A stretch of 64,000 bases of DNA from Gammaproteobacteria bacterium (lineage in GTDB: Bacteria > Pseudomonadota > Gammaproteobacteria > SZUA-229). The notes beneath the pieces were generated by a model. The model was not told the DNA's origin. It did not search any database and saw only the letters and a list, made by a program, of their open reading frames with translations. Shown here piece by piece: positions 5,688 to 41,222 of the stretch (the first letter of the stretch is position 1; each line of letters begins with the position of its first letter). The translations under genes were made by a program, and so were the position numbers. The stretch lies in NCBI GenBank assembly GCA_026995045.1, contig JALWPK010000042.1, positions 12,733-76,732 of the forward strand, in the 5' to 3' direction.

Positions 5688-5805
5688 CTCGCCCAAAGGT
5701 CAGAGGAGAGTCTAAACGCACATAAGAGTCTAAGTCAATGCGCTTGCGTAAACTAAGACGGTGACGATGTGAACTTAACACTTTATATACGGAACATAGT
5801 TAATT
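5688..5805 (+). repeat. Copy A of the TnpB-3'-end/omega-RNA-like cassette (leader part only, no promoter, no TnpB codons)
   Basis: ctcgcccaaaggtcagaggagagtctaaacgcacataagagtctaagtcaatgcgcttgcgtaaactaagacggtgacgatgtgaac... aligns with the 3' halves of copies B, C and D. It ends at the ATG of 5806. Confidence 0.85.
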
Positions 5806-6261
5806 ATGGCCTCCATCACTTCGCAATCTAATTACCTGTTTGACGTTGAGCCGCTTGTAACGCTGCGCAACGGCAATGATGCCCCCGAAACGGCAACCGC
5901 GTCTGAAGCACCTGTGTCTTTGCAGGCACAGGGCGGTGCTTATTGGCAGAATGACGAACAGACATTCCGCTACGCCGCCGTTGTTTTCAACGTGCAGAAC
6001 ACACTGCCCACGGCTGGCGGGGAGACCTATGCCTTGTCTGTGGAAGTTGCACAGGATGCAGCATTCACCCTCGGCGTAGCAACCGTCGGTACTGTAGCAA
6101 GTGTCACCGCACCGGGTTACTACACTGTAACTCTTAACGGCGATACTATTGACACGTTGTCTCCGGGCGCTAAATACATTCGCGTGACTGCGACGTTGGC
6201 CGGTACTGCACCAGTCATCGACTACGCCGCATTCATTGCCCCTGTAGTCGGCGCGCACTAA
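5806..6261 (+). CDS. Hypothetical virion protein (possible capsid decoration or accessory protein, by position)
   Basis: 151-aa ORF immediately after the capsid gene. It is preceded by cassette copy A and followed by a strong intrinsic terminator. Confidence 0.55.
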   Translation: MASITSQSNYLFDVEPLVTLRNGNDAPETATASEAPVSLQAQGGAYWQNDEQTFRYAAVVFNVQNTLPTAGGETYALSVEVAQDAAFTLGVATVGTVASVTAPGYYTVTLNGDTIDTLSPGAKYIRVTATLAGTAPVIDYAAFIAPVVGAH

Positions 6262-6277
6262 ACCGCGAGCTGACACT

Positions 6278-6320
6278 GTGGCGGGGGTAGTGTGTGTGTG
6301 GGCTCCCCCGCCACTTATTT
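6278..6320 (+). terminator. Rho-independent terminator
   Basis: Perfect 10-bp GC-rich stem gtggcggggg (6278-6287) / cccccgccac (6305-6314), a 17-nt loop, then ttatttg. It lies 17 nt after the stop of 5806..6261. Confidence 0.7.
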
Positions 6321-6369
6321 GCAAAACATACACACACACTCTTAACTTACCACATACAAGGAATGTTTC

Positions 6370-6675
6370 ATGGCTAAGGAAAAAGTCGCCCCTGAAGATA
6401 TGCGCGTATGGGTTGAGAGCCCAGACGGTAAACTCATCCAAGAGCACACCATTGCAAATGCGCGTGATCTCGTAAAAAACGCTGGTTGGAAACAGGTTGT
6501 TGATCCTAAAGCGCAGAACACGTTGGCTGTTGATAAAGGTGACGACGTAATTGACCCGTCAGCCAATCCAGATAAAGCGCCTGCAAAGGATGCTGCGCCT
6601 GCAAAGGACAAGGCACCTGCGAAAGATGCTGCGCCTGCGAAGGACAGCGGCGGCAAGAAATTTCAGACCCGCTAA
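6370..6675 (+). CDS. Hypothetical protein with a C-terminal (K/A)APAKD x4 repeat
   Basis: 101-aa ORF with AAGGAA upstream of the ATG. The 18-bp in-frame repeats at 6574-6645 encode KAPAKD AAPAKD KAPAKD AAPAKD. Confidence 0.6.
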   Translation: MAKEKVAPEDMRVWVESPDGKLIQEHTIANARDLVKNAGWKQVVDPKAQNTLAVDKGDDVIDPSANPDKAPAKDAAPAKDKAPAKDAAPAKDSGGKKFQTR

Positions 6676-6693
6676 TCTTGATCGGTAAACCAC

Positions 6694-7251
6694 ATGCCCG
6701 CCTTTTTAGTCGCCGATGGGACACCGGCAACAAACGCAGCCACGTCATACGCCTCCGTATCGGAGGCTGATGACTATCTGAGCCTGTCAAGAGAATACTT
6801 GACGGCATGGACAGCGCTGACCACGGCGGAAAAACAGGTGTACTTGATGCACGCAAGTCGTCTGATGGATCAGACTATCAAGTACACAGGCACCTTGGCC
6901 AGTGCTGACACGAATTTACGCTGGCCAAGGGACAACGCATTCGATTGTGATGCTAAGCTGTACGACAATACCGAGATACCTGAGCCGATAAAGGCGACAG
7001 CCATCGAAATCGCGGGGTACTACGCAACTAACACAACGATAAACGCATCTGACAAGGTCGGCGATGACGAAGGATTGCAATCCATGCGTGTCGATGTCCT
7101 TAGTTTCACTTGGAAGAAGTCCGCAATATCCGCAACAACTGCAAACAAGTATCCAAGATACATAGCGAATACACTGCAATGCCTAGGAACTGTAGACTAC
7201 ACCGCAATGGGACAACCTCTAGGCGTGCGGTTTAAGCAAGGAGCCTTCTGA
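6694..7251 (+). CDS. Head-tail connector/adaptor protein (putative, gp6-like)
   Basis: 185 aa. The N-terminal NAATSYASVSEADDYLSL resembles the start of gp6-like head-tail connector proteins. It lies downstream of the capsid genes. Confidence 0.45.
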   Translation: MPAFLVADGTPATNAATSYASVSEADDYLSLSREYLTAWTALTTAEKQVYLMHASRLMDQTIKYTGTLASADTNLRWPRDNAFDCDAKLYDNTEIPEPIKATAIEIAGYYATNTTINASDKVGDDEGLQSMRVDVLSFTWKKSAISATTANKYPRYIANTLQCLGTVDYTAMGQPLGVRFKQGAF

Positions 7252-7637
7252 TGGCGCTGGCAGACTTAGCAGCGAATTTAACAAAGAAGGCGCTTACAAT
7301 TGCCGATTCGTTTTTGGTTGACGTCGTTATAGAACAGCACACGCAATCAGGATATGATGTTACCACGGATAGTCCTATTGAGACAATCACTAATCATATT
7401 CTGCGTGGGTTGCTCTATAACATCAGCGACTACGAGAAGACGACGCTGTATCCTAAGTTCCCCGAAGTGGGACAAGAGAAGCGCAAACTTCTAATTGCGA
7501 AGACGGATGTGACACCCGGCTTCAAGCCGTCTACAAATGATTCCGTGCGTATAGACACTGAGGCTTGGGAGATATGGCGTGTAACAACTCCACCATCTGA
7601 GCCACTATACATTCTATATATAGCTAAGGCCACATAA
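7251..7637 (+). CDS. Hypothetical head-tail joining protein (by position)
   Basis: 128-aa ORF. Its start overlaps the previous stop (TGATG), indicating translational coupling within the morphogenesis operon. Confidence 0.5.
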   Translation: MALADLAANLTKKALTIADSFLVDVVIEQHTQSGYDVTTDSPIETITNHILRGLLYNISDYEKTTLYPKFPEVGQEKRKLLIAKTDVTPGFKPSTNDSVRIDTEAWEIWRVTTPPSEPLYILYIAKAT

Positions 7638-8185
7638 TGATCAACGCGCGCGTGTTAGGTATATCGAAGGGCAAAGAGACAACGGATAAGTGGCTGGCCA
7701 GCATTAAGCGTGAAGTGTCCGCACAACAGCGCCGAGTGACACAGCAAACACTTGAGGCAATACGTCAGCGTTTGTCAGTCTGGTCTGGACAGACGCAGAA
7801 CTCCATCACTGTCAGCCACGGCTCGCGCGTAACGAAGATGGCGAGGCGGGATTGGTCAGAGTGTGCCGAGTGGCGCACACACGCAGGCGGCTCAACAAAC
7901 GATGTACCTACTGGGCAAAACCTTGAGAAGAAGGCCAACTACGCTGTTTATCAACAATTGCTTAATAATGTAAGCGCGACAAGGCCCTTTGACCCGATTT
8001 GGATAACAGCGGATTCGCGCGCAGGCCGGAATGGTCTTTGGTTAGGCATGGCACCTGCTGGTGCGTTTCGGCATCTCGAAAACAGACAATGCGGTGTCCG
8101 ATTTAGACCAAGGATGGGTGCGACGGCGTTGGATGACATAGTACGACAGGGCGCTAAAGGTACGGCGTTTTCGGTGAAAACATGA
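7637..8185 (+). CDS. Hypothetical head-tail joining protein (by position)
   Basis: 182-aa ORF with a TAATG overlap with the upstream gene. It is the only long ORF covering this interval. Confidence 0.5.
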   Translation: MINARVLGISKGKETTDKWLASIKREVSAQQRRVTQQTLEAIRQRLSVWSGQTQNSITVSHGSRVTKMARRDWSECAEWRTHAGGSTNDVPTGQNLEKKANYAVYQQLLNNVSATRPFDPIWITADSRAGRNGLWLGMAPAGAFRHLENRQCGVRFRPRMGATALDDIVRQGAKGTAFSVKT

Positions 8186-8607: not shown

Positions 8608-8633
8608 CGCAGCCACACTAACTGGAGTTTAAT

Positions 8634-10490: not shown

Positions 10491-10498
10491 AGCTAAGT

Positions 10499-11383: not shown

Positions 11384-11386
11384 GCC

Positions 11387-17400: not shown

Positions 17401-17862
17401 AGGATTATAGATATACGTGATGTTCTGAAAGAGCGATTCTACGCCGACGGCTATAACGTATATACCGATAAGCAGTATGAGCCGACATATTACGATGTAC
17501 CAAATAGAGTTCAGGAAATATCAGCAGCGGCAAATGATGCGTTTCCGGCTGATGCCGATGTTCAGCTTTTTCTTTTGAACAGAGGTACAAAGTTCACAAG
17601 CGGATGGTGGCTCCCTTATAAAAAGTATGACAACACTCATATCTCCTACACATCACTGCACGACACGGGCAATGTCAGGGGTGTCATAAAGTTGAACAAC
17701 CGTGTGCTCGTTGATGAGACTTTCCAGTTTGGCGTGCGCACGCTTGTGGATACTTCATTGCTCGGCGACACGTACACCGATGCGTGGGTGGTGACACCTG
17801 ACTTCAATCCCCTTACGGAGACACTGGACATTGCGATACACCAGTTGCCAAATCGACGATAA
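14461..17862 (+). CDS. Giant tail protein 1 (host-specificity/gpJ- or GTA g15-like C-terminal motif)
   Basis: 1133 aa, starting 3 nt after the tape measure stop. It contains CIGGIEWIQFQTVTVVSPTRIRLDGIMRGRFGTTP, which resembles the conserved motif of lambda J / GTA g15-type proteins. Its last roughly 9 codons and its stop lie inside cassette copy B. Confidence 0.6.
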   Translation: MAIKTAKLINKFLRKQGGVGPECYPGAPGEYTKKWCLQHAKLQYTKIMNDVLHGATANLTTDGLIPTEGLYGNEFEEAINNTSYDQTAYSISTQIVSNRANFKRGYNLKYSENLTRRPVGVLKADDVLKISEEKLNTVNKVAIDLDYFSGLIEPCYCNEYVNEEITRYPFGDAQTQPDSADKTDDTAPRSGEDNNTVSGNGADNISQVSRAIPDVYGRYRIKCNLIERRTDGDVFGVCLAKDNIRLLRIMFNDVTVFERGAVVEPSLIAGVTVNAIGYRDLFTVTLHGINVSRIVTEYGGLVYAEVVEGAASGTSVAPVYKTIAGASITAVDASSGALLVTDANGDVIVDDTITITSADPANALVRTAGAALVGDSVYINDKVVNIFAASVRTVSPIMTPPIGVHHNSVGETVLITNSQVYNLHTDKAFGLLAPNPNAAFYAGNIGVSSDGATLYTVDEKALTHTTTNAPALNYNTFAYSGNDIVLIDAANGIGHVFKGTEFMRRIQFGAAIVPHISGPRFSKGAINIVRLSDNRILTTDLQTGDVRDTGVSAPVSLTRYVDFGNTIVGETTGGDVVYVSIPDANTATTFDNMVTAASDGVFSGTADVLYGHLLSDPERSYLDYLTTDFANAYNRYTTNYGGAGVLSTSDNANQPVLELTRDTVTKPIVVASDATAIVEAVTFSNVRTDYSVRDIDTAPVSDTNPLSDFATTAMVSDDATAAALAAAYANRGRTVVNMSTTTAAPFRNIQVGAGGNVDKYVFSPDGTAYELESEKLGVDVSYTLTAPTPTPSLTTDIKTILPGMATGALIVPHETICKYDDNLLVGKVITQLPTQHVWRLQQHYDTFIEVDFLTAPTSLPTTVTYEQLLADEKLNTACIGGIEWIQFQTVTVVSPTRIRLDGIMRGRFGTTPRETRAQAGDVIVFYNSISCKDAVNVNAPTLEVPAIHITDVVHNFDASVNYFQISEAELKYWMRLVAAGRIIDIRDVLKERFYADGYNVYTDKQYEPTYYDVPNRVQEISAAANDAFPADADVQLFLLNRGTKFTSGWWLPYKKYDNTHISYTSLHDTGNVRGVIKLNNRVLVDETFQFGVRTLVDTSLLGDTYTDAWVVTPDFNPLTETLDIAIHQLPNRR

Positions 17863-17977
17863 GCTGACGCTTGGCCACCGCCAATTCAACTGTAAGAGCT
17901 GTGGAGTTTCTATAGACCGGGACTTAAACGCAGCGTATAATCTAAACAGCTCGCCTAAGGTTCAGAGGAGAGCTTAA
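17834..17977 (+). pseudogene. tnpB: tnpB 3'-terminal remnant (frame broken by a 1-nt deletion relative to copies C/D)
   Basis: Translates as RYTSCQIDDKLTLGHRQFNCKSCGVSIDRDLNAAYNLNSSPKVQRRA*. It retains the second CxxC of the Zn ribbon and the RuvC-III DRDLNAAxN motif. There is no start codon. Confidence 0.75.
17913..17941 (+). promoter_or_regulatory. Candidate sigma70 promoter inside copy B (TAGACC-N17-TATAAT; weakened -35)
   Basis: Positional homolog of the perfect promoters in copies C and D. The -10 is intact; the -35 matches TTGACA at 4 of 6 positions. Confidence 0.4.
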
Positions 17978-18062
17978 GCGCACATAAGAGTCTAAGTCCC
18001 TGCGCTTGCGTAAACTAAGACGTTGACGATGTGAACTTTGTTATAGGATTTTATAGCAAATT

Positions 18063-26500: not shown

Positions 26501-28850
26501 GTTGTTGAAGAATCTGTACTATGCAACGGGTGTTGTAGCTGATTTCAATACAGGCACAGACGTCGTAGAGGTGCGCAAAGCCGAAACGCTGAAGCTGGAT
26601 ATACAGCAGCACAAGTACTATAGAGATCATATTATCTTTGCCGATGAACCTGAAGAGACTCCCACGGTTGATATATCGTACTTGGAACCGGCGCACGGTG
26701 TGAGGGAACTATACACGCGTACAGCAGACACATCCAAACTCCTAAGCATGAAGACCAATGCGAGTGTTTGGGACATCGCGTCGGTGGTGGACAACGCGCA
26801 GGAACTCGCAAAACGCCGGTCTGACGGCGACACGATTGTACTGTCTGTTGCCGAAGCGCTGGCGAGTCCGTATGAGGACATTACCTTTGACACTGCAAAG
26901 TTCAGCGCTGGCGTTGAACAACGTTACAGGGATGGTTTGGTCAAATATCCATCCGGTGCCGACGCCTTGCTGATATTCACAACTGACGCTGCGGCGTCTG
27001 CCGACGTCGCACGTCCAGTGTTTGACGGTACAGATACATTGAACGACATTGGACAGCTTAACTGGGGAAAAATAGCTACAATCCCAAACAGTTTTGATCT
27101 GACCTTCACAGCCTACGGCACAGCGGATGCCGCAACGTTAAACACCGCTAAGGGGCTGTTCGGGCTGCGCAACAACGAGTGGATACTGTTCGACGCGGCT
27201 GTGCATGTATCTGGCAACACATACACGTTGCAGAACGCACGTAGAGGCGTACACCACTCACACTACGCTAGAGATTTTAACATACGTTATGCTGACAATG
27301 ACAAAGACGACGGTGTCTGGCTAGTGCGCGCTGTTCCTGATACATACGCGCTACCGGCCAAACCAGCAGCCATCGACAACGCTATTGTTTTGCCACAACA
27401 TGCCATGTCTGCGCAAGTTCCGCTGCAAACACGCTTCTACAACAAAATTCCTGCACCGACCAATATTGTCGTTGGCGAGGATGTCATTAGTTGGACTTCG
27501 CAAAACATCATAGACGACAGGCAGCTTGGCACAGGTGAATATATTGTAGGGTTCTTCTGGGGCTATATGCGCGACGGTATGGATGCGTTGTATTTGCTCA
27601 ACACATTATCAAGGACAAACCCTGAATCTTACAACGATGTTCTATATAAAGGTGAGAACAGATTCCTACACGCGAAGTATGTCACCGGCACTGATATGTT
27701 GTTCCCAAAAGACTATAAGGCGAATCTGGTTGACAGTATCACCAAACACACGGTGACGCCGATTGACATACCTGATACATCAATACCCTTCCAGACAGAT
27801 AATGGATGGTGGTTCTACTCTGATACCGAGCAGGCCGTCGCAGCGGCGCTCACAGCCTTGAACCATCCTGCATACTGGAAAGGCTTTGTACGCGGCACCA
27901 GTCCCGCGCATCCGGCATTTTATGAGTGGATGAAGCGGCTGCTCGTCCCTTCATATAACGGCTGGCATTGGACATGGGACGGCGCTGGTGATGTTATTCA
28001 GGTAATGCCCGAGCTGCCCAAGCTGACTGGGCTTTATGACTACTATGGCGACGGCGCTAAGAATCCCGGAAAAGTTGTGTATCCGGCTGCGGATGTGGGA
28101 AAACTTGCTGAAACGTGGTTTCCAGCGTTTCCCGTTCCTTCCACAGTGTTCCCAATCCGTCACTTTCTAAGCCTGTTCTTGTATAAGCTCGCATCACAGC
28201 GTTTCCCGTTGGTAGATGTCGCACTCAACAGAACTGAGTATCACAATCCAAACACAACACTGTATAACGAGCCCGGCGGAATGCCTAGATACAGTAGCCC
28301 ATTCACTGAAAAACTTCATGTCGCGCGTATTCTGCTGGATCAATTCTATGGCGTACAGACACCTTCAGCAGCCGACAAAACACTTCTCAACGAGTACGGA
28401 CTGGGCGGACTATACACACTACAGACGCACGATGCCGCCAGTACTCACCTGAATGCGCTAGTAAACGAAGCACTGTATAAGGACACAGAGCATTATTTGG
28501 CGCTGCACAACGCTGAGAAAATCGGCATCATCATTGCTGAAGTACAGACTGACGGCACGCTCGGGCACTTTGAACTGCTGGAAGGTGTTGCGCCAGCAAA
28601 GAAGCATGAATGGTGTGTAACAGACAGGCTGAACAACTCAGCTAAGGTACATAAGAGCACAACATACGCGCTGATTGAGGAACTCGGCGTCGGGTGCTCC
28701 ATGTTCTCGATGACGCTGGTTGTGCCTAAATACACGCCACCTGTAAATGCGATGCGTGTGCGTAAGGCGACGACGTACGCAGCAATCGTCAGGGAGTCAA
28801 ACAGGCTGTTGAAGACAGGTACATATTGCGCGTTCGCGCCAAAGGCCTAG
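23547..28850 (+). CDS. Giant tail protein 3 (paralog-like; gpJ/GTA g15-type motif)
   Basis: 1767 aa with a TAATG overlap with the upstream gene. It contains GLFGLRNNEWILFDAAVHVSGNTYTLQNARRGVHHS. The N-terminal roughly 125 aa are Cys-containing and end in KPKPAKKKKKLKKSK. Confidence 0.6.
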   Translation: MAIDFSKKWTTTGIADIPNDGYDGSNSCIERAETACSGVASTEYNACVQARLRSFGCTPSASPEKRTAATQVQMSARRGTPLRDGFVPDEELSGVAETDVRDGVRYTYSLDKPKPAKKKKKLKKSKDGHKAHVLEDYRSIKSDAIDVSDVFSSDVVLSQQCNTAQFNAMYPEAVASKLGLSQIPLGYGPNCNPSKEQGEKEARICYHDAYMGCVVKFLEDQKAAAERALEVAETNHANRLDYEADKRLRARGAKGIAVSQPFHELAIPFHRVTSVEECMSALTYQGDDPVDWRQDTRSVTRRRDENDSDKQATDTEPQFCLDTAVVPKQNTVDIITDINPLAAQSGVAKYDQRLNVRRLIRSHVMEALGPAKGELTDCSCSKCLVVQNKSYDSSSTEGAQAALVTAALERKANTSPDDLIATSEAESVGVILPYVVGRIIIRGTVITVDEEQAAACGLAHPRFDCVVKLAANRVDKVVRILRLGADVTNDVAFELFYTADGHSAVRMFGVPKEWLKAEGTLDVVFDTYTAVELVPTVKLRSDIAVSTRSTVVRADMRRVYVNTTTNAVDVYSIVTGAKLETLNVIINAGDVWDVTPVGDVVIKRNGTGDVDLYIPATDTLKTFANVVNPATADFSYSLSGAVNLVKSKRYQYETLRGNPRAEFDTWIPLKAGEAYTSAYNIHSNHGSDTAKVISVPAHVIDADLADAQTYYKDVFPGGELRGGVSVDEYGSDVFILHNENSFSITVAEFAKNYTAANAPLIDTVAAYAVDYDFNSNLKTGMAAHSRTTYLTPQRFFTRDNGVGQVLFSPEYQKLVVNDGANWFIAEHRLSLFEAGLFNSANASVSMAQSYMKQINAPQPAARVTLSVTSDSRISMGREAVFQYIDTNGDMIEFDVANDTWRKVGVVNEARNITSQTYTTYDGGTVIYTTDDGAVNAVTPNSSAVFFDVAAGLVKMFSFLGIKANAVDSVPSFLTGFALIGDSTVELLKNLYYATGVVADFNTGTDVVEVRKAETLKLDIQQHKYYRDHIIFADEPEETPTVDISYLEPAHGVRELYTRTADTSKLLSMKTNASVWDIASVVDNAQELAKRRSDGDTIVLSVAEALASPYEDITFDTAKFSAGVEQRYRDGLVKYPSGADALLIFTTDAAASADVARPVFDGTDTLNDIGQLNWGKIATIPNSFDLTFTAYGTADAATLNTAKGLFGLRNNEWILFDAAVHVSGNTYTLQNARRGVHHSHYARDFNIRYADNDKDDGVWLVRAVPDTYALPAKPAAIDNAIVLPQHAMSAQVPLQTRFYNKIPAPTNIVVGEDVISWTSQNIIDDRQLGTGEYIVGFFWGYMRDGMDALYLLNTLSRTNPESYNDVLYKGENRFLHAKYVTGTDMLFPKDYKANLVDSITKHTVTPIDIPDTSIPFQTDNGWWFYSDTEQAVAAALTALNHPAYWKGFVRGTSPAHPAFYEWMKRLLVPSYNGWHWTWDGAGDVIQVMPELPKLTGLYDYYGDGAKNPGKVVYPAADVGKLAETWFPAFPVPSTVFPIRHFLSLFLYKLASQRFPLVDVALNRTEYHNPNTTLYNEPGGMPRYSSPFTEKLHVARILLDQFYGVQTPSAADKTLLNEYGLGGLYTLQTHDAASTHLNALVNEALYKDTEHYLALHNAEKIGIIIAEVQTDGTLGHFELLEGVAPAKKHEWCVTDRLNNSAKVHKSTTYALIEELGVGCSMFSMTLVVPKYTPPVNAMRVRKATTYAAIVRESNRLLKTGTYCAFAPKA

Positions 28851-30499
28851 TAGTGGATACTCAACGGCTTTGCGCCATAGGCGCGCCGTTTTGTATTATC
28901 CCTGACATATTGCGAAAGCGCGTCGGGGTAGTCGTCATATTTCCCATTTGGGAAGGCGACAATTTCGTTGACAATATCGGCGAGCCACGAAGCTTTTTTA
29001 GGGAATATAAGGGAGCCTGACTGAATGGCGGGCAATAGGTAACTTTCGACGTTGAACGCTTTTGAGCCCTTATTCTGGGCGCTCACAGGCTTTACAGGAC
29101 AGATGAATGCTTTGCTGTAGTTTTCGATTATCTGCGAACCCATGGCGGCGTCTTCGACAAGTATCACATGCGCACCGTGCGTTTTTGCCATTTTGCCTAT
29201 GATGCTTACGATCTCAAACAACGGCTTCTGAACAGCCGTTGCCTCAAGAACATAACTGGTTTTGTCTTTATAGCGCGCTACGGCGACAATCGCGGTTCTG
29301 TTCGATCCTGTTGTGCTTTTCTGAGCGGCGTCAACTGTGATTGTCACAGTTGCGTCGCCTTTTGGTAATTTGTCGTAGTATTTGAAATCACCGTGCTCGA
29401 CATAATCGCCGAGTTCGTCCATCGGTACGCCTAGATAAGTAGCACTCCACAGCGCGGGTGTCAGTGTTGTCTTGATGTTGATATAGTGTTGTGCGCCGTA
29501 GAACTCTTCCCACAGCCAATGTCCGGGTTTAACAAACTGGTGATCTTCAGAACCCTCAGCGCTGATGTTCACAATCTCATATGGCGACGGCATCGTGTCA
29601 GGGTGCTCTATAAGCATTTTTTCAACATACCCCATAGGGTCCTCTGACATCCAGCGTGTGCCGATCAACAGCACAACAGCTCCCGGCAATACACGCGGAA
29701 ATACGTCAGCAGTGAGCCACTGAATAGCGCGCCGCCGCTCTTTAGGCGACAAAGCACTCTCAGCCCCGCCAACAATGTCGTCAAGAACGATTAGATTGGC
29801 GCGTATCCCAGACGTGTTTGCGCCTACTGATCTTACTGTATAGCGGCCTCCGAAGCCATCTAGTGCCCAAAGATCAGATGATCTAAACGATGTGTCGATA
29901 CTTATATCTGGGAATATCGTCAAGTAATCTGCAGTCTTCAGCGTCTCCCTGTTCGGTATGGAGAACTCTCTACAGACAAAGTTCATTCCGTAGCCGCCAG
30001 CCAACACTTTGTGAGTTGGGTTACGGCCCATGTACCACTGAACAAAGCTCTTTGATGCGTATGAACTTTTTGCAGAACCCGGCGGCAGGCTTAACAGGAT
30101 GATCTTTGTCTTACGGCTTTCTAAGTCCTGCATCTTATTACACATATACCGGTGATGCTCCGCTGGCACTTCAGTCGGATTTATATACTCATGGTATGCT
30201 GTTATGTCGTGCTGCGCCATTGCCGCCAGCACTCTGAAGTACCGGTCTTCTTCACTCGAAAATGTCTGGAACAGATTTATGTTCGGGTGGTTATTCAGGA
30301 ATTGTTGTTCTATTGGTTTGAGATCATGCGTGGTTCTTCCTTCCTGTATTTGTGTATACAAGTCGTGCAGGAACATGACCTTGGCGCGCTCTTTCGCACG
30401 CTCAGCCCATGTGTCGAACCACAATCCCTGTGCTTTTAACTCATCTATAGATGTGAGGCGATTAGTAACCGCCTCATCGAGTAGGAGCCTTGGGGCCAT
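28847..30499 (-). CDS. terL: Terminase large subunit
   Basis: 550 aa. Walker A-like LSLPPGSAKSSYAS, Walker B-like ANLIVLDDIVGG, LLIGTRW, and a C-terminal nuclease-like half with conserved acidic residues (TVDAAQK..., VLVEDAAMG). Confidence 0.85.
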   Translation of the reverse strand: MAPRLLLDEAVTNRLTSIDELKAQGLWFDTWAERAKERAKVMFLHDLYTQIQEGRTTHDLKPIEQQFLNNHPNINLFQTFSSEEDRYFRVLAAMAQHDITAYHEYINPTEVPAEHHRYMCNKMQDLESRKTKIILLSLPPGSAKSSYASKSFVQWYMGRNPTHKVLAGGYGMNFVCREFSIPNRETLKTADYLTIFPDISIDTSFRSSDLWALDGFGGRYTVRSVGANTSGIRANLIVLDDIVGGAESALSPKERRRAIQWLTADVFPRVLPGAVVLLIGTRWMSEDPMGYVEKMLIEHPDTMPSPYEIVNISAEGSEDHQFVKPGHWLWEEFYGAQHYINIKTTLTPALWSATYLGVPMDELGDYVEHGDFKYYDKLPKGDATVTITVDAAQKSTTGSNRTAIVAVARYKDKTSYVLEATAVQKPLFEIVSIIGKMAKTHGAHVILVEDAAMGSQIIENYSKAFICPVKPVSAQNKGSKAFNVESYLLPAIQSGSLIFPKKASWLADIVNEIVAFPNGKYDDYPDALSQYVRDNTKRRAYGAKPLSIHY

Positions 30500-30728
30500 A
30501 ATTTGTTATAACTCCTATAACAAAGTTCACATTGTCGACATTTCAGTTTACGCAAGCGCAGGGACCGAAACTCTTATGTGCGTTTAAGCTCTCCTCTGAA
30601 CCTTGGGCGAGCGTGTTTAGATTATACGCTGCGTTTAAGTCTCTGTCAAGAGAAATTCCACAGCTCTTACAATTGAATTGGCGATGGCTAAGAGTCAGCT
30701 TGTCGTCGATTTGGCAACTGATGTATCG
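30500..30728 (-). repeat. Copy C of the TnpB-3'-end/omega-RNA-like cassette
   Basis: 229 bp on the minus strand, ending at the terminase ATG (30499). The antisense track ORF 30532..30756 shares the peptide ASVFRLYAAFKSLSREIPQLLQLNWRWLRVSLSS with ORF 41071..41436, which exposes the repeat. Confidence 0.9.
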
Positions 30729-30731
30729 AGA
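30543..30731 (-). pseudogene. tnpB: tnpB 3'-terminal remnant (62 codons plus stop, no start codon)
   Basis: The minus strand translates as SRYISCQIDDKLTLSHRQFNCKSCGISLDRDLNAAYNLNTLAQGSEESLNAHKSFGPCACVN*, preceded by an in-frame TGA. Confidence 0.8.
30621..30649 (-). promoter_or_regulatory. Perfect consensus sigma70 promoter TTGACA-N17-TATAAT inside copy C
   Basis: The minus strand reads tctcTTGACAgagacttaaacgcagcgTATAATctaaacacgctcgcc. The spacer was counted as 17 nt. The predicted TSS is about 115 nt upstream of the terminase ATG. Confidence 0.6.
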
Positions 30732-30841
30732 TCAAGAACAGCGCACTGTTGCATAGCGCGGGATGTCTCATTTAAGAAGCTGAAGTCCTGCCTAAGCCTT
30801 ATTGTTCATAACTTAAGCGTATTCATATAGCCTTTTATAGC

Positions 30842-33670
30842 TTATTTGTCAACCTTTTCCTCTGGGATGTATATATAACCATCCTCGATAACTATGCCCG
30901 CGTCTTCTTTGAACTTCGTCATGCGCGTAATCGTCGTAACGTCGTTGGTTACGTGCTTACCGCGTTTTGCCAGATGTGCGCCAGCGATTGTGCGTGTATT
31001 GATGACGTACTTGCCATCAATCTTCGACACTGTGTCTTTTGACACAATTGTATCCAGCGCGCCTGTCGCGCCCACAGCGACAGCGCTGTCACCGGCTAGG
31101 AAGCCGTCGAGAAAATAATCCACCGTGTCCTTTGGCGCTGTGATACGTCTGCGCCGTTCATTATTCTCGAAGGGCCTTGACAGGATTTGCCAATTCATAC
31201 CGTGATCTTCTGGGCGGAAATTGCGAAGGAAGTACTTCATCTTTCCGATGAATACAGGGTCCTGTACGCGCGCGATTTGCTCTGCCCAAAACGTCGGTGC
31301 ATTGCTGTATTTGCGATTGACGACGAAGTAGGATAAGCGCCTGTCATGATCATCAAGAACAACGACATTGTGGTTGTTGGAGGCCATGACTAAGTGGTGA
31401 AAACTGTCTATCTCAACAGAGTCCACACCCTTAGGCTCAATGCGTATCTTGTCTGACGTGATGAAGTACTTCAACTGGCCATCGTCTTTGAAGTTCAGTG
31501 TCTCCGACACCTCATCGTAAAAGACCATATGTTTACCGGCGAGGAGGGCATTGAAGTTGGAGAAAATCTCACGTTTAGCAGACGCAGCCAGTCCGAAGTC
31601 ACCGTGGGGCTCAACAAACATTGCCTTTATTAGCACACTCTTACCTGCGCCTTGGATACCTTCAAAGAACATACACGTCGGCAACTTCTTGCTTGTGAAT
31701 TGATGCGTATGGGCACACCACGCCAGCATATAGTTGAAGGCGTCTTCATCATTGCACGCAAGCACTTCTTTAAACAAGGCGAGTTCTTTGTCATAGAACT
31801 CATTCATGTCGCAGGGGATGCTTTTTATGTTGGCTTCGGGGTCATATGTGTTGAAGGTCACAAGATCAGGCATACTCCCGAACTTATGCTTCGGCGTACA
31901 AGTGATGGCTTCTATCTCAGGATATATGTACGGCAGCCTCAGCCAGTATGACACTACGTTTACGTCATTTTCTATGCGCGCGTCGAACACTCGCATACCC
32001 CTATGGAGTTCGACTAACGCCTCTTCATTATATACGCCGACGCGGGGCGCGATTGTGTTCATAGTGCGGGCCATGTCAACGTATAGCACACCAGTCAACG
32101 CCTGTTTCGCGACAACGGATTTATTGACGCGGCGCATGTTTTTATCAAGCGCTTTGAATGTGTCGATGTACGCTTTCGCATGTTCCGTACTGGTGAAGGC
32201 ATACGCCTGATCCACGAATTCTTCCACACGCACACCTGTGAAGACATCGGCAATCGTGTCGTAGTCCAACCCGTACACATCCATTAGCTTTGTGATTGGT
32301 TTACTGTAATCAGTGAGAAAATGCTGCGTAGTGATTATCCTACGCACAGCAGACGGGAGGCTACGACACTGTAGGCGATAAGCCTTCAACATGTCAGTAC
32401 GCGCAACAACGCCGTGTGTAAGCGCATCAGTGAGGGGTACAGCGGTAAACGCTAACGCATAGAGTTTATCGCTATCCGACAAGTCTCTGTCTTTGCACAG
32501 CTCTTGAAATGTCGGGATATCCTCACAGTCAAACAGAGCTTTCGACCACTTGGCGTCTGACAGTACTTTTTGTGTAAATACGTCGGCATCGTACTCACTG
32601 GCGACGGCCGGGTCAACATACTCGATTGGTTTGAACACAGCGGTGTCGTCAGGTACAAAGTTTTCCTTGACCTGTACTTCACTGAGCGGAAAGTCTAGAA
32701 TGTTCGGCGGTGCAGCGGCGCTCAGCGCGTCGAAGGACAACGTGCCATCAGTCAGTAGTCTGTGAATGAATGTAGGTGTATCACGATCGTTGCAATGTTC
32801 ATGTAAACAGCTTATCGTCGCAAAGCAATATTCATCGTTTGGCGGCGCGGCGAAACATGCTTTGTCACCGTCTCGCTGCGTGCTGTGCTCATGTTCAAAC
32901 GGGCATCTTATGTGATACCCGCCGGAATCCCTGTCGCTTATAATGATTTCAGGGCAGTTGTCGTTGATGACTTGTGCGATGTCAACAGTGCTGTTGATGT
33001 CGAACCACTCCCTAACATCCACAGTCTGGTTGTCGTGCGTAATCCACAGCGCATCGCCGCTGGCCGTGCGTCTGTTGTTTTGATGGTTTGGCGCTATGCC
33101 TGACGCCTCAACATTCTGTATGCTTAAATCCGGGACAAGCGCTTCAGCATCAATGAACGTGCTGGTGTGCTGCACTGTAGAGTTCGCAGGCTTACTTGCG
33201 ACGAAGTACATACGCTCAAGCTGATTGCTCGTTATATCATAATTTACGAAGCCTAAGCTAGCCGCTATGTGCGCGTGGAAATCCGCATACCAGCGCTGTT
33301 TTGGCTCATTGACTTTTTCAGCAAAAGGGATGACTACGCGGTATTTCGGCGTCTTGCCGTCTGACAGATGCGAATATGTAGTGTAGACATAGCTTGTTAG
33401 GTTGCCTTCACGCAGCGCTGACACAGCCACGTCAAATGGCGTAGCATTACTGGCGTCGAAGTCATACACGAGTCCAGCTACACTAATGACATTACGCTTC
33501 TTGCGGCGATTGTCTCTGAACTCAGCCATGCTGAAGCACGGCGTGCGCTCTTTCGACGGAACTTCAAGGTGACTTGTCGCCTTGAATAGCTCGGCAAACG
33601 TCTTCGTAGCGCGCCACTGATCCACAGAATACATGCTGTCGCATGTAGTTATCTTTGTAGCAATCGGCAC
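30842..33670 (-). CDS. Bifunctional primase-polymerase / SF3-type (D5/P4-like) helicase
   Basis: 942 aa. The N-terminal AEP-like region has LVYDFD and YRVVIPF. A Cys/His cluster follows (HIRCPFEHEH...CLHEHC). The C-terminal NTPase has Walker A FEGIQGAGKSV and Walker B MVFYDEV. The GTG start overlaps the sigma gene stop. Confidence 0.8.
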   Translation of the reverse strand: MPIATKITTCDSMYSVDQWRATKTFAELFKATSHLEVPSKERTPCFSMAEFRDNRRKKRNVISVAGLVYDFDASNATPFDVAVSALREGNLTSYVYTTYSHLSDGKTPKYRVVIPFAEKVNEPKQRWYADFHAHIAASLGFVNYDITSNQLERMYFVASKPANSTVQHTSTFIDAEALVPDLSIQNVEASGIAPNHQNNRRTASGDALWITHDNQTVDVREWFDINSTVDIAQVINDNCPEIIISDRDSGGYHIRCPFEHEHSTQRDGDKACFAAPPNDEYCFATISCLHEHCNDRDTPTFIHRLLTDGTLSFDALSAAAPPNILDFPLSEVQVKENFVPDDTAVFKPIEYVDPAVASEYDADVFTQKVLSDAKWSKALFDCEDIPTFQELCKDRDLSDSDKLYALAFTAVPLTDALTHGVVARTDMLKAYRLQCRSLPSAVRRIITTQHFLTDYSKPITKLMDVYGLDYDTIADVFTGVRVEEFVDQAYAFTSTEHAKAYIDTFKALDKNMRRVNKSVVAKQALTGVLYVDMARTMNTIAPRVGVYNEEALVELHRGMRVFDARIENDVNVVSYWLRLPYIYPEIEAITCTPKHKFGSMPDLVTFNTYDPEANIKSIPCDMNEFYDKELALFKEVLACNDEDAFNYMLAWCAHTHQFTSKKLPTCMFFEGIQGAGKSVLIKAMFVEPHGDFGLAASAKREIFSNFNALLAGKHMVFYDEVSETLNFKDDGQLKYFITSDKIRIEPKGVDSVEIDSFHHLVMASNNHNVVVLDDHDRRLSYFVVNRKYSNAPTFWAEQIARVQDPVFIGKMKYFLRNFRPEDHGMNWQILSRPFENNERRRRITAPKDTVDYFLDGFLAGDSAVAVGATGALDTIVSKDTVSKIDGKYVINTRTIAGAHLAKRGKHVTNDVTTITRMTKFKEDAGIVIEDGYIYIPEEKVDK

Positions 33671-34245
33671 TATAACAACTCTTTAATCAAATCCAATATC
33701 ATCCCATACTTAGCGCGTATGGCGTCTCTTGACATGTTCAGCCTATTCGAAATCTCTTCAAAAGTCAAGCCTCTTATGCTACGCATTATGAAGATGTCCA
33801 CATACTCATCGGGTAACGCCTCAAGTTTACGACTCAACAACGCTTGACTTTCGCGCATCAGTGTGTTAGACTCTGGGTCTAATTGCGTTGCACGGGCATT
33901 ACGCGCTTCCTCAATTGGGACAGTATCTACTGCACGGCGGCTTTTTGCGCATGTGTTTAGCATTCTCCCCCTAATGTGCGCGACGGCAAACGTGGTGAAA
34001 CTTGCTTGTTTAACGTTGTCCTCAGCGTACCGTCTTGCGGCGTTTAGCAGGCCGATCAAACCTTCGGCGTACAGGTCATCAGCAGATACCGCCTCATTCA
34101 CTGACGCAGACAAACGTGTGCTATAGTACAATAGGTACGGGTGCATGATCTGCACAATCTCAGAGAATAGTGCGTCTTGCTCAGTGTTTTGAAACTTAGC
34201 AATCAGTGCGCTGAGTTTCACATTCTTCGCTGTTGTTGAACTCAT
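33670..34245 (-). CDS. RNA polymerase sigma factor (sigma-70 family, ECF/group 4-like size)
   Basis: 191 aa. Region 2-like: DLYAEGLIGLLNAARRY...FTTFAVAHIRGRMLN. Region 4-like HTH: LPDEYVDIFIMRSIRGLTFEEISNRLNMSRDAIRAKY. Confidence 0.8.
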   Translation of the reverse strand: MSSTTAKNVKLSALIAKFQNTEQDALFSEIVQIMHPYLLYYSTRLSASVNEAVSADDLYAEGLIGLLNAARRYAEDNVKQASFTTFAVAHIRGRMLNTCAKSRRAVDTVPIEEARNARATQLDPESNTLMRESQALLSRKLEALPDEYVDIFIMRSIRGLTFEEISNRLNMSRDAIRAKYGMILDLIKELL

Positions 34246-34682: not shown

Positions 34683-34709
34683 TGTAGCACAGACTTAAAA
34701 AAATGTCAA

Positions 34710-37961: not shown

Positions 37962-38553
37962 TGTTTTGACTGTCGATAATATCGGAAATTGTTAACGCCT
38001 CTTTACGTAAGTCATCCAAAGAACCGTTGTTGTATACTGTGTGATCTGCGACGATGCCATCCATCTCTGTCTCAGAGGGGTGCTCGTCCGCCGCACCGTC
38101 TAGCTTAGGCACATCTCTAACAACACGGATAATGTATGCCCCGGCATCACTGAGGGCTTCCGCCTCATTGACATAGCGCACATCGCTGACCACTACATAG
38201 TCACATAGTGACTTGTTAATTCGGCGCAATAAGGACTTTACCCATATGTCTTTGCCTAGAACGTCACGGCCGAACTCTGTTCCGAACAACTGCATACAGC
38301 GCCTAAGCGTAACTTTGTCAGAGAATGGTACGAAGTCCATCTCCTTGCGCCATCTGTCCTCCATAAATGCTTCGTATTTGTTAGCCGTGCTCGGCTCGCC
38401 TACAAGTGTGGCCATGAGATGCGCCATCGTAGTCTTGATCGGTGTAGCCAGCTTGAACTTAAAATATCCACGCTCAGTTGACAGTACATCAGCAAAGGCA
38501 TCCTTACCGCTTCCGCGCTTTCCTACAATTGCAATTACCACTTTACCGTTCAC
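37942..38553 (-). CDS. P-loop (deoxy)nucleoside monophosphate kinase-like protein
   Basis: 203 aa. Walker A IAIVGKRGSGKDAFA at the N-terminus; overall like phage dNMP kinases. It sits within a nucleotide-metabolism context. Confidence 0.55.
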   Translation of the reverse strand: MNGKVVIAIVGKRGSGKDAFADVLSTERGYFKFKLATPIKTTMAHLMATLVGEPSTANKYEAFMEDRWRKEMDFVPFSDKVTLRRCMQLFGTEFGRDVLGKDIWVKSLLRRINKSLCDYVVVSDVRYVNEAEALSDAGAYIIRVVRDVPKLDGAADEHPSETEMDGIVADHTVYNNGSLDDLRKEALTISDIIDSQNSGVRFA

Positions 38554-38592
38554 AGAAGTTGCTCCAAATGTATATGATTGCCAAACAGATGA

Positions 38593-40965
38593 TTAATGCG
38601 TTTCCAGCCAACTCATACCTCGCTTAACATCAGCAGCGACAGGGCAACGCATACCCAATTCACTGCCCGCTTCAACAGCAGATTTGCTAAGCACATCTGC
38701 AAGAACATCGGCTATGTCAGGCGCTACGCTACACTGTATCTCATCGTGGATATGTGCCAACATAGTCCAATAGCCCTGCTCAATACCCATTGGACACCCC
38801 AATTCGCGCATATTGTCAAATACTTTTACTGCCCAGAGTTTCGCCACCGCAGCAGCCTGTCCCTGAAGCTTCGTGTTGAGTGCGCCGTACATTGACCTTA
38901 TGCGGATACGTCTGCCATCAAGACCAATGATATAACCTCGCTCAGCCTCAGCACGCACGGCGGCGATTGCTGGCGCTAGTCCGGGTACGCTTCTGAGCAG
39001 CTTAGCGCGAATGTCCGCGCCGATTTGTCGCTTTGATGCGTCCGGCGCAGTTGGTTCTGCCGTGTGGCCTAGTTTCCAATCTCCAGCGCCGTAAAGCAGG
39101 CCAAAAAGACACCGCTTCACAATTGCTTTTGAGCGTACACCGGTGCGCTCAAGATTAACACTGTGCACATCGTTGTTAAGCACGATGTCAATAAGCTCGC
39201 CGTCGTCGAATGTTGAGCATACATCCGCCAAGCACCTGACCTCGATATTCTTCAAATCCGCGCCGAGCATGACATGGCCTTCATGAGGGATAAAACAATC
39301 TCTGCACTCAGCGCCAAACCGCCCACGCTTGCCTAGCACAGCAACGGTTCCATCGGGTAACTGGCGGTACTCATGAGGCTCCAGAGGGCCTTTCTTGGTG
39401 CGCGCAACGCCATTCTCGACGAAGCCTGTTTCGAGACTTGGTACTTGGCCAATGTTGAAATTTGAGTGACTGCACCGCCCTGTGACTGTCCCGCCTGCGT
39501 TAGTTCGGCAATGCGCGATGCCTTTGTCATCAACGTGTTTTATCCAAGCCTGTCTCCCTGTTGATATCTGACCTAGAAGTTTTGCGTGGAACAGATAGTC
39601 CGCGATAGACTTTATCATGTCCATGCCTACAGCGTCGTCGATGTCGATGCTGTCAAGGGTGTCAACAGTGACTTGCGGCGTGCCCTTGTCTGTGAATTCT
39701 GTTGGCTGCCAATCGTACAGTGTTGTCAGCCTGTTGACGATTTGTGGGCGACTTGCAGGATTAAATGTCACACGCTTCAGCTTACAGGACTTAGCACCTT
39801 CCGTCGTATTGAAGAAGTAGACCCTGTTGCCGTCTTTATCAAGCTTGAACAGCTTCTTATAATTTACTGTGCGTTTGCTAACATACACAGCACCCCACCA
39901 ACGTCTAGACCCGTCTTCACCGTGTTCGGGGTTGTGCGCTTCATACTTGTCAACCTGACACTTTGTGTCTGCCGCAATGAAGCCATGTTTTCTGAAGGCG
40001 TTGAGTATGATTTGTTTTTCGGGAATTGTCCTGTCTTGCCAGAACAACAGCGCGCGGCTTTTATATTTCCAAAAACTTCTCTCGCGGATCACCGGTACGC
40101 TGACGCCGGCGCTCGTAGTGGCGCGCAACATTGCGGCATGATCTGCGCCGACTGGTGGTTTGCGCATACCATCCAAGAATATATCGAAGTCAAGCTTGTT
40201 GTCCTCATCAAAGGCAGGCCACGCCTCCTTCTTTTTCGCCGCTGTGTACCATGTTCCGAAATGATTGACCAATTTTTCGTGGAGGCTATTAACGGTTGTT
40301 GACACGGCACTAATCAATGCACGCAATCTGTCAAGATGCACTGGGAACCCGTCACGCTGCATCTGTGCAAAGACTTCATGCACGCGCTGTTCGGCTTGAA
40401 TAGCTACGTCATCCTGAGCAGTATTATGTTCTATGATATGGGAAAACAGCTTTGCAGACACGCGCACATCCTGCTCGCAGTAGTCTGACATGGCTTGGTT
40501 CCAGACGCCCCATGTGTGCTCAATCACGTCAACGCCGAGCTTTTCCGCTTCGGCTGCGCGCTCTTTTGCATAGTCCCCCTTCAACATACCGAAGCGATAG
40601 CCCCATGCTTCGAGGGATTGTGAGCCTGTTAATCTGCGCGGTAAGCCTGAGGCGATGTGTTTGCGGTAATCATCGTCGGAAACAGTGCTGAACAACACCT
40701 GACAATAAACCAACGTGTCGTATACAGTGCCGCTGAACTTGAAATCCTTGAAAACTTTGGCGATTGCCGGTAAGTCAAACGCGATGATGTTGTGACCAAC
40801 AAGTGCATCAGCGTTTGACAACAGCTCTACAGCCTTTGGTACATCTTCCTTGTCAAACCGCACAACTTCATCACTGCCTACACGCATGACGTGTATGCAG
40901 TGGATTTTTGTCATCGATGGCAACAGGCCATCAGTCTCGATGTCGAATATATAGCTGTGGGCCAT
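38593..40965 (-). CDS. polA: DNA polymerase I family A with 3'-5' exonuclease domain (no 5'-3' exonuclease domain)
   Basis: 790 aa. Exo I: YIFDIETDGL. Exo II: GHNIIAFDLPAI. Pol motif A: LGADLKNIEVRCLA. Motif B: RSKAIVKRCLFGLLYGAG. Motif C: AHIHDEIQ. Confidence 0.9.
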   Translation of the reverse strand: MAHSYIFDIETDGLLPSMTKIHCIHVMRVGSDEVVRFDKEDVPKAVELLSNADALVGHNIIAFDLPAIAKVFKDFKFSGTVYDTLVYCQVLFSTVSDDDYRKHIASGLPRRLTGSQSLEAWGYRFGMLKGDYAKERAAEAEKLGVDVIEHTWGVWNQAMSDYCEQDVRVSAKLFSHIIEHNTAQDDVAIQAEQRVHEVFAQMQRDGFPVHLDRLRALISAVSTTVNSLHEKLVNHFGTWYTAAKKKEAWPAFDEDNKLDFDIFLDGMRKPPVGADHAAMLRATTSAGVSVPVIRERSFWKYKSRALLFWQDRTIPEKQIILNAFRKHGFIAADTKCQVDKYEAHNPEHGEDGSRRWWGAVYVSKRTVNYKKLFKLDKDGNRVYFFNTTEGAKSCKLKRVTFNPASRPQIVNRLTTLYDWQPTEFTDKGTPQVTVDTLDSIDIDDAVGMDMIKSIADYLFHAKLLGQISTGRQAWIKHVDDKGIAHCRTNAGGTVTGRCSHSNFNIGQVPSLETGFVENGVARTKKGPLEPHEYRQLPDGTVAVLGKRGRFGAECRDCFIPHEGHVMLGADLKNIEVRCLADVCSTFDDGELIDIVLNNDVHSVNLERTGVRSKAIVKRCLFGLLYGAGDWKLGHTAEPTAPDASKRQIGADIRAKLLRSVPGLAPAIAAVRAEAERGYIIGLDGRRIRIRSMYGALNTKLQGQAAAVAKLWAVKVFDNMRELGCPMGIEQGYWTMLAHIHDEIQCSVAPDIADVLADVLSKSAVEAGSELGMRCPVAADVKRGMSWLETH

Positions 40966-41009
40966 AATTAATTATAAATACTTATAACAAAGTTCACATC
41001 GTCAACGTC

Positions 41010-41222
41010 TTAGTTTACGCAAGCGCAGGGACTTAGACTCTTATGTGCGTTTAAGCTCTCTTCTGAACCTTTGGCGAGCGTGTTTAGATTATACGCTGCG
41101 TTTAAGTCTCTGTCAAGAGAAATTCCACAGCTATTACAGTTGAATTGGCGATGGCTAAGAGTCAGCTTGTCGTCGATGGTGCCACAGTTCGAACAAGTCT
41201 TCGACGACGGGAAAAACCGTGT
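41010..41222 (-). pseudogene. tnpB: tnpB 3'-terminal remnant (70 codons plus stop, no start codon)
   Basis: The minus strand translates as TRFFPSSKTCSNCGTIDDKLTLSHRQFNCNSCGISLDRDLNAAYNLNTLAKGSEESLNAHKSLSPCACVN*. FPSSKxCSxCG ... CxxCG ... DRDxNAAxN is the hallmark TnpB/OrfB Zn-ribbon plus RuvC-III C-terminus. An in-frame TAA lies immediately upstream. Confidence 0.85.
41088..41116 (-). promoter_or_regulatory. Perfect consensus sigma70 promoter TTGACA-N17-TATAAT inside copy D
   Basis: The minus strand reads tctcTTGACAgagacttaaacgcagcgTATAATctaaacacgctcgcc, the same sequence as in copy C. Confidence 0.6.

Follow-up and report, generated by a model that had tools for sequence, protein, structure and literature searches.

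Transposon right-end stubs at phage gene starts: candidate promoter and leader modules and guide RNA donors for a phage-encoded TnpB

Why should a phage carry the same fragment of a transposon directly in front of several of its genes, each time ending at the start codon? This question is raised by a stretch of 64,000 nucleotides (subsequently designated the window) of contig JALWPK010000042.1. The window belongs to a metagenomic scaffold of 75.8 kb, in whose record its first letter is position 7034. An earlier note, made from the letters of the window alone, had described four co-oriented cassettes, A to D, which resemble the 3' end of the transposon gene tnpB together with the right end of the element, i.e. 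the part encoding the omega-RNA that guides the nuclease TnpB. Here, 71.6 kb of sequence reaching from 6 kb before the window start to about 1.5 kb past its end were examined (the locus was fetched around gene 3929–4699), and a fifth, full-length copy with an intact tnpB was detected on the same contig. We favour, with moderate confidence, the reading that A to D are decayed right-end stubs of an insertion sequence (IS), kept as promoter and leader modules and as donors, in trans, of guide RNAs for the TnpB of this phage.

All four cassettes were recovered at or very near the coordinates given before; A starts at about 5673 rather than 5688, C reaches 30833 and D starts at 41218. They share 87–96% identity, are all co-oriented, and each is read in the sense of the gene downstream of it. 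Reading of the four sites gave a repeat length of ~120–260 nt with an ATG directly after each copy, and in a MAFFT alignment, which shows near-identity from the tnpB remnant onward, all four terminate with ...AATT|ATGRCC at a gene start. A 45-nt core and a 16-nt invariant block are present only in A to D (~0 expected in shuffled sequences). Likewise, a covariance model built from the copies, a check that had been proposed before, matched nothing but A to D in the window (128–151 bits), the next-best match scoring 14.9 bits (E-value about 0.6–2). This weak match at 6686–6808 (+) lies within gene 6694–7251 and most likely arose by chance. The longer copies had been recognized as the C-terminus of TnpB, and indeed the Cas12f1-like TNB domain (Pfam PF07282) was matched above its gathering score in D (8.8e-14), C (1.5e-9) and B (6.9e-9). 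According to tblastn, D corresponds to residues 317–385 of TnpB, C to residues 331–383 plus 60–86, B to residues 331–385 with a frameshift, and A to residues 359–385. The copies and the genes adjoining them are as follows:

5673–5805 (+): copy A, the shortest stub, comprising the scaffold (P1, P2 and a diverged P3 hairpin) and the right end; 127.9 bits with the covariance model
5806–6261 (+): gene adjoining A, 151 aa, phrog_427, no assigned function; first ~20 nt (5806–5825) are the putative guide
17834–18062 (+): copy B, comprising a frameshifted tnpB remnant, the scaffold and the right end; 151.4 bits
18063–19211 (+): gene adjoining B, 382 aa, no family match; first ~20 nt are the putative guide
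30500–30833 (−): copy C as a whole, comprising right-hand piece, internal piece and left end
30500–30710 (−): right-hand piece of C, comprising TnpB residues 331–383, the scaffold and the right end; 93.6% identical to the master copy; 149 bits
30723–30797 (−): internal 75-nt tnpB piece of C, residues about 60–86; 92% identical to the master copy
30801–30833 (−): left end of C with the tnpB ATG; 97% identical to the left end of the master copy
28847–30499 (−): large terminase gene adjoining C (Pfam Terminase_6C); first ~20 nt (30480–30499) are the putative guide
40966–41218 (−): copy D, comprising scaffold and right end; 95.8% identical to the master copy; 149.4 bits
38593–40965 (−): gene of the family-A DNA polymerase adjoining D (Pfam DNA_pol_A); first ~20 nt (40946–40965) are the putative guide

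Contigs from a second sequencing run (Logan SRR13853571; L002, L003 and L005) are 100% identical to the window. One of the contigs from this run ends inside copy C, as expected when an assembler meets a repeat.

A full-length tnpB, for which a search outside the window had been recommended, was found on the same phage contig and is designated copy E:

L004 4078–5303, 0.77–2.0 kb before window position 1 (−): copy E, the full-length element with intact tnpB
L004 4122–5279, window about −793 to −1947 (−): tnpB of E, 385 aa

The 3' end of E is a fifth cassette, its right end ...GAATT|ATGACCC lying at the start of a gene for a 193-aa Holliday-junction resolvase. The 385-aa product possesses the full TnpB architecture, i.e. 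a helix-turn-helix (HTH) domain (HTH_OrfB_IS605, PF12323), OrfB_IS605 (PF01385) and TNB (PF07282), and aligns end to end with ISDra2 TnpB (8H1J/8EXA, E-value about 1e-53). The RuvC triad is intact: the motifs GVDLG, IEDL and DRD align with D191, E278 and D361 of ISDra2, and the corresponding residues D188, E272 and D354 are invariant in an alignment of 12 sequences. As the catalytic D, E and D are retained, this TnpB is, by its predicted active site, of the nuclease type rather than a dead repressor of the TldR type. Guide RNA of ISDra2 likewise comes from the tnpB 3' end and the right end, and the ...LNAH... codons overlap the scaffold; however, only about one third of the residues are identical (judged by eye from the alignment), and ISDra2 has a Y1 TnpA and a TTGAT target-adjacent motif (TAM). 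A tnpA of either kind was not seen in the 71.6 kb, nor was a serine-recombinase TnpA (MerR HTH plus resolvase) found there beside tnpB; Y1_Tnp was absent from the called genes of 42 kb, for which no dedicated Y1 search was run. Therefore, the element appears to be a tnpB-only derivative, mobile only with the help of a host enzyme, if at all.

The cassettes had been called orphans, lacking a start codon, any upstream part of tnpB and a left end throughout the window. This does not hold: the master gene lies just ~0.8 kb outside the window, and comparison of E with the contig by blastn, supplemented by tblastn, showed that C retains three pieces of it, namely the left end with the tnpB ATG (33 nt, 97% identity), an internal piece of 75 nt (92%) and the last 219 nt (93.6%). 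D consists of the last 261 nt of E (95.8%), B of the last 219 nt (92.2%) and A of the last ~133 nt (87.5% over the alignable part). The copies are nested, C having the left end plus two internal deletions, and D and A being truncated from the 5' side. As the deletion junction CGATAC|AyCAGTTGCCAA is common to B and C, B descends from a C-type deletion derivative. Left-end remnants were not detected 5' of A, B and D, where local alignments scored no better than those with shuffled sequence. The coding remnants are dead throughout, having stop codons and no start codon; B carries a 1-nt deletion, and the ATG of C opens an ORF (open reading frame) of 5 codons. The stop codon of the upstream 1133-aa tail gene (17860–17862) is located inside copy B. 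With 4–12% divergence the copies are young.

Upstream of the left end shared by C and E, the flank of C (window 30834–30860, −) reads GAAAAGG|TTGACAAATAAGCTATAAAAGG|CTATATG. It contains a TTGACA 17 nt before the TATATG of the left end, and the stop codon of the primase gene falls within the same stretch. The contig of the closest relative, L148, likewise opens with the 9 nt GG|TTGACAA. The left end of C may consequently reach about 30855, being 22 nt longer than the shared part and diverged in the master copy.

What part of the element has been kept at the gene starts? The ~125 nt between the −10 hexamer (see below) and the ATG can be folded into three modules (P1; P2, which contains an inner hairpin; and P3, an AU-rich hairpin at the end), and substitutions between the copies tend to respect this pairing. 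Copy C alters both arms of P2 (GUCUAAGU/ACUAAGAC to GUUUCGGU/ACUGAAAU) with pairing kept, copy A replaces a G-C pair in P1 by A-U and rebuilds the base of P3 from other nucleotides, and P3 of copy D is a perfect palindrome. Altogether, 5 pairs are changed on both sides among the five copies, as compared to 1.6±1.1 in shuffles (2/500) and 0 in slid controls. Variation is greatest in P3 (in D 20/26 positions are identical versus 85/88 in P1-P2), and yet a hairpin is present in 5/5 copies, its loop carrying GGA/GGAG 12–14 nt before the ATG. The model of the five copies also matches the sequence directly 3' of related tnpB genes, i.e. in L148 (74.5 bits), L149 (40.9 bits) and L144 (38.9 bits), and at tnpB loci of Thiorhodospira, Thiomargarita and Chromatium (29–39 bits). 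The alignment with these relatives follows the model by construction; in it, 94% of cells are paired, against 31–44% in slid controls, and compensatory changes are seen in 27 of the 32 pairs. Hence the earlier suggestion that the RNA-encoding part is retained appears well founded: the candidate scaffold comprises tnpB 3' end and right end, covaries, albeit in few sequences, and has its flank directly 3', and it is positioned and behaves as expected for the omega-RNA scaffold of this TnpB clade. Rfam gave no match at gathering score in the window, nothing relevant at E<=10 over the master copy, and no RAGATH-18 match.

The cassettes had also been proposed to bear a promoter. In C, D and E, a predicted sigma-70-type promoter with perfect consensus hexamers lies within the codons S-L-D-R-D-L-N-A-A-Y-N near the end of tnpB, so that the same letters specify the conserved residues L-D-R and Y-N:

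30621–30649 (−): predicted promoter in C, TTGACA-17-TATAAT, 12/12 sigma-70 matches
41088–41116 (−): predicted promoter in D, TTGACA-17-TATAAT, 12/12 sigma-70 matches
17913–17941 (+): weakened promoter of B, TAGACC-17-TATAAT, 10/12 matches

Copy E carries TTGACA-17-TATAAT as well (12/12); apart from C, D and E, about 70 kb of sequence contain just one further 12/12 match, at 54184. In B, four substitutions are clustered in 15 nt around the −35 hexamer, and A retains only a −10-like TACAAT (5673–5678) without a −35. The closest relative of the TnpB (P0103 at locus L148, 59% identity) has both hexamers exact, with 5 substitutions in the 17-nt spacer.

Rather than standing at the heads of gene blocks, as had been stated, the copies lie inside co-directional operons. 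The genes immediately 5' encode the major head protein (A), a tail protein (B), primase (C) and a 320-aa ORF (D), D preceding the polymerase gene as described. A and B are part of a rightward structural operon, and C, D and E belong to leftward replication, packaging and lysis operons.

Next, we consider the family of the element. It had been assigned to IS200/IS605; within the IS605/IS607 superfamily, it most likely is of the IS607 type instead. The nearest genome-encoded relatives of its TnpB (45–49% identity) are found in sulfur-oxidising Gammaproteobacteria, and in L069, L070, L071, L085, L086 and L090 a serine recombinase of the MerR-HTH plus resolvase type is encoded directly upstream of tnpB, an order which is that of IS607 and makes this assignment of the phage element probable. 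According to the literature, IS607 elements insert at GG or directly behind it, in most cases have GG as their last letters and leave no duplicated target, and the dinucleotides at the two junctions may differ. Their TnpB proteins use G-rich TAMs (AGGAG, GAGGG, TGGG) with scaffolds ending in ...CGG (PMC13565253; PMC10690162). The phage element resembles such tnpA-tnpB elements, including CboIStron (PMC10690162; PMC13565253), in several respects. Both preserved left flanks are G-rich and end with GG, i.e. ...CATAGGAGG| (...TAGGAGG|) in E, a canonical AGGAG TAM also matching GAGGG, and ...TATAAAAGG| (...TAAAAGG|) in C. The right ends of its relatives read ...AGCGG, AGTGG or AACGG, thus terminating with CGG or TGG. 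It differs in the missing tnpA, in the absence of a RAGATH-18 match, and in having two forms of the right end, ...TTATGG (A, C and D) and ...TTATGA (B and E). Members of the IS200/IS605 family proper have a Y1 (HUH) TnpA, an AT-rich TAM and, at both ends, subterminal hairpins to which TnpA binds. The left flanks of the phage element are not AT-rich; a terminal hairpin, P3, is found at its right end, and its left end has only about 30 nt.

Empty sites were looked for in relatives of the phage. In the metagenomic phage L066 (62% identity of the terminase), the genes for primase and terminase overlap by stop and start codon (GTGTAATGGCACGT; TAATGG) and no cassette is present; L067 (53% identical) and the polymerase relative L065 (38%) are also free of it. 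From this comparison, the insertion at site C is derived. L066 is too diverged to fix the boundaries of the element, terminase relatives in IMG/VR are <=26% identical, and the sole polymerase relative at JGI is 38% identical. The N-terminus of the L066 terminase (MARLL...) has the same length as that of the present phage (MAPRLL...), and the resolvase encoded downstream of E matches its PHROG profile from position 2 onward; hence the present start codons coincide with ancestral N-termini.

The similarity of the five copies, traced to AATT-ATG before, in fact passes AATT and runs on through ATGRCC(C). ATG-RCN is frequent in this phage (22/40 ATG-initiated genes); ATGRCC, however, is found at 5/5 cassette genes versus 2/36 ATG-initiated genes without a cassette, an excess that is not due to chance. 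Target preference of the recombinase, copying between gene starts by microhomology, or selection for an initiation context are possible causes. Three positions for the right boundary were considered, and none could be adopted. With AATT| the native ATG is kept and the R of ATGRCC follows the gene rather than the lineage of the copy, but the occurrence of ATGRCC in 5/5 cases remains unexplained. ATGG| fits the GG rule of IS607 and also the published observation that the dinucleotides of the two junctions may differ. In this case, however, the 'AT' of the start codon belongs to the element, and so reconstructed empty sites lose their start codon unless the left flank has mutated. ATGRCC|, suggested by AATTACGAAC in L148, suffers from the same start-codon problem. 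Only two other genes in the window begin with ATGRCCC, at 8182 (+; ATGACCCCG) and 53494 (−; ATGGCCCGA), and both are without a cassette; should the element prefer the ATGRCCC context, these genes would be candidates for unoccupied targets.

How could such stubs work? We propose that the element multiplied inside the phage genome, leaving five copies and one intact nuclease gene. C, D and E would be transcribed from their own promoter, and A and B by read-through from upstream, yielding transcripts composed of the scaffold, the first 16–20 nt of the downstream gene as guide, and then the mRNA of that gene. TnpB made from E would load these RNAs in trans, as proposed for the omega-RNAs of palindrome-associated transposable elements (PATEs; PMC10055086). 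Each complex would recognise the insertion-free version of its own locus, with a G-rich TAM beside the gene start. Such a version may form when the element is excised, or may be brought in by a co-infecting relative. Once cut, it would have to be repaired from the genome that carries the element, resulting in retention, homing or marker exclusion. In mixed infections, related phages would be excluded, by analogy with the homing endonucleases of phages. Meanwhile, 5' parts would be deleted under genome-size pressure, and the 3' part would be undeletable, since the downstream gene takes from it the promoter, the 5' leader and possibly the context of its start codon. Such a requirement by the downstream gene would account for variable 5' ends next to an invariant 3' end. 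The fact that the phage kept just the RNA-encoding part had been taken as a sign of exaptation; the truncations would equally follow from genome-size deletion if the 3' end cannot be lost.

Several observations weigh against this proposal. The folding energies of the scaffold are not better than those of shuffled sequence (z −0.5 to +1.7), substitutions are no sparser in it than in the dead coding remnant, and the covariation is carried by few substitutions in a structure derived from the same sequences, the alignment of the relatives being fitted to the model in addition. A is without a promoter and that of B is weakened. Since no tnpA is present in the 71.6 kb, mobility would need a host enzyme. 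Finally, if the right end is ATGG, an insertion-free start with ATGG could look like 'self'.

A more far-reaching version, which we consider rather improbable, is that the phage runs a dispersed multi-guide system composed of one TnpB and five omega-RNA modules fused to the starts of core genes, i.e. those for polymerase, terminase, resolvase and two genes of the structural operon. It would act as a gene drive, or by exclusion, against insertion-free phages and would at the same time be wired into the transcription programme, the consensus promoter having been retained where replication and packaging genes follow but inactivated in the structural operon, which is late.

Among the alternatives, passive decay deserves most attention, although we consider it rather improbable. 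Here, the stubs are leftovers of dead IS copies without guide function, whose 3' end is wedged against an essential gene and now serves as its promoter, leader or start context. The variable 5' and invariant 3' ends are in agreement with it, as are the high similarity of the copies, pointing to recent insertion, the scaffold being no more conserved than the coding remnant, the unexceptional folding energy, and the stop codon of the upstream gene inside B, as a deletion would give. However, in A, C and D the pairing of P1, P2 and P3 is preserved by compensatory changes, this small genome also maintains an intact TnpB, and A, having no promoter, still keeps the whole scaffold, when about 30 nt would suffice for a start context. 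As the copies are young, these arguments weigh only weakly against decay.

An exaptation independent of TnpB, which unites two of the readings offered before (exapted promoter with leader; RNase-processing or stability element), is unlikely. In this case, the cassette would be a portable promoter plus structured 5' leader setting transcription, stability or processing of the downstream mRNA. The perfect consensus promoters before the polymerase, terminase and resolvase genes would suit such a role, as would their specific degradation in the two copies inside the structural, presumably late, operon and the GGA/GGAG in the P3 loop close to the ATG. Exaptation leaves unexplained, however, why distant tnpB genes have the same structure conserved at their 3' ends and why an intact nuclease is retained. 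It is moreover compatible with the function as guide donors rather than exclusive of it.

Riboregulation by TnpB appears very unlikely. TnpB would bind the scaffold in the leader, bury the start codon as 'guide' and cleave or block the mRNA, so tying polymerase, terminase and resolvase to the level of TnpB. The start codon does lie within the putative guide, immediately 3' of the scaffold, and TnpB is known to process its own transcript into omega-RNA (PMC10278001). But such control of a downstream ORF has no precedent and is purely conjectural. The last alternative, true orphans serving a TnpB or TldR encoded by the host, is scarcely credible: it could draw only on the absence of tnpB inside the window, and against it stand the cognate tnpB on the same contig, whose DNA is 94–96% identical over the shared part, and the lack of any near-identical element in 185,579 species genomes; the closest genome-encoded TnpB is 49% identical. 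Thus, of the previous suggestion that the cassettes are guides for a TnpB encoded elsewhere in phage or host, the phage version is the best supported reading and the host version is contradicted by the master gene.

The preferred reading, stubs as promoter and leader modules and as guide donors for the phage TnpB, has partial precedents, although the earlier note knew of no described phage regulatory element of this kind. In Geobacillus stearothermophilus, protein-less PATE-like derivatives of the IS200/IS605 superfamily still encode omega-RNAs used in trans by TnpB (Meers et al., PMC10055086). The stubs resemble them in being non-autonomous tnpB derivatives which keep the right end and the omega-RNA and rely on the TnpB of another copy. 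A PATE, however, retains both ends without protein genes, whereas here C alone has a left end, the other three stubs (A, B and D) being right-end fragments that are not transposable; they reside in a phage genome, sit flush with a gene start, carry or have lost a consensus promoter, and look IS607-like. TnpB elements in phages are also known (PMC2853527; bioRxiv 10.64898/2026.02.14.705889), as are phage-encoded TldR regulators derived from TnpB (bioRxiv 10.1101/2023.11.30.569447). The virulent Campylobacter phages CP220/CPt10 contain ISCaje1-4, several tnpB-only IS200/IS605 copies within lytic phage genomes, but these are full elements, and omega-RNA-only stubs, a promoter role or gene-start junctions were not described (PMC2853527). 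Outward-reading IS promoters are known, and the PeSLs of T4-type phages are mobile cassettes composed of a promoter and a stem-loop. Like these, the cassettes are a repeated mobile module which puts a promoter and a hairpin before phage genes, but PeSLs are neither transposon ends nor do they contain a guide RNA scaffold. We have not found a description of a single phage in which a master TnpB is accompanied by several omega-RNA stubs lacking the left end, all of them joined to core-gene starts and with a consensus promoter that is retained or lost depending on the operon.

Should the stubs be active, they would show a TnpB transposon in the course of ceasing to be one: transposase and most left ends are lost, and nuclease and guide modules persist, coupled to functions of the host genome as promoters, leaders and start sites. 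This bears on the domestication of RNA-guided nucleases, from TnpB to TldR or Cas12 and towards one effector with several guides, and on their possible role as homing or marker-exclusion agents between phages, similar to protein homing endonucleases. If the multi-guide version applies, this would be a natural state of one effector with several fixed trans guides outside the transposition cycle. In practical terms, one 385-aa nuclease and five natural guides with known targets make a compact set. If the stubs are inert, they provide a clean example of how insertion at the start of an essential gene shields one end of a dead IS from deletion.

In terms of distribution, no DNA match was obtained among 50,697 GenBank phages, either for a 14-kb region or for the cassette, and the closest terminase among known phages is about 30% identical. 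The exact pattern of the cassette core had 0 matches in IMG/VR or in the 185,579 species genomes, and the promoter-containing pattern had 0 matches in IMG/VR. The window (1–64000) is devoid of tRNA and tmRNA genes. A rightward structural block extends from the portal gene at ~2153 to a 1767-aa gene ending at 28850, where it meets head-on the leftward replication and packaging block (64000 down to the terminase end at 28847); a divergent region near 2100 separates the portal gene from a leftward block with ribonucleotide reductase (RNR), tnpB, resolvase and lysis genes.

Outside the cassettes, perfect or 11/12 sigma-70 sites were detected at 54156–54184, 63909–63937, 1965–1993 and 43901–43929 (all −). 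They are located at plausible starts of leftward transcription units, the one at 63937 being followed by GGAG and an ATG. The phage also encodes a small sigma factor of its own (33670–34245, −; 191 aa, Sigma70_r2 and r4), which suggests a separate promoter class, probably for the structural operon, outside the scan for the sigma-70 consensus.

Related elements occur in other viral or phage-like contigs. In L149 (3001–4201; 154.6-kb phage-like contig ZHAN22-2 scaffold_19), a TnpB with 50% identity is encoded in a dense array of small co-oriented genes. Its tnpB starts 30 nt from the upstream stop codon, and the next gene call, with a TTG start, follows right after the terminal hairpin of the omega-RNA-like region. 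Among 79 viral contigs with a related tnpB, additional copies of the 3' region within 10 kb almost always belong to a full tnpB; there is one possible stub. In L175 6087–6246 (IMG/VR UViG_3300010429_001094), a 163-nt repeat of the post-tnpB sequence, 79% identical and located ~1 kb downstream without tnpB, may be a right-end-only stub in another viral contig.

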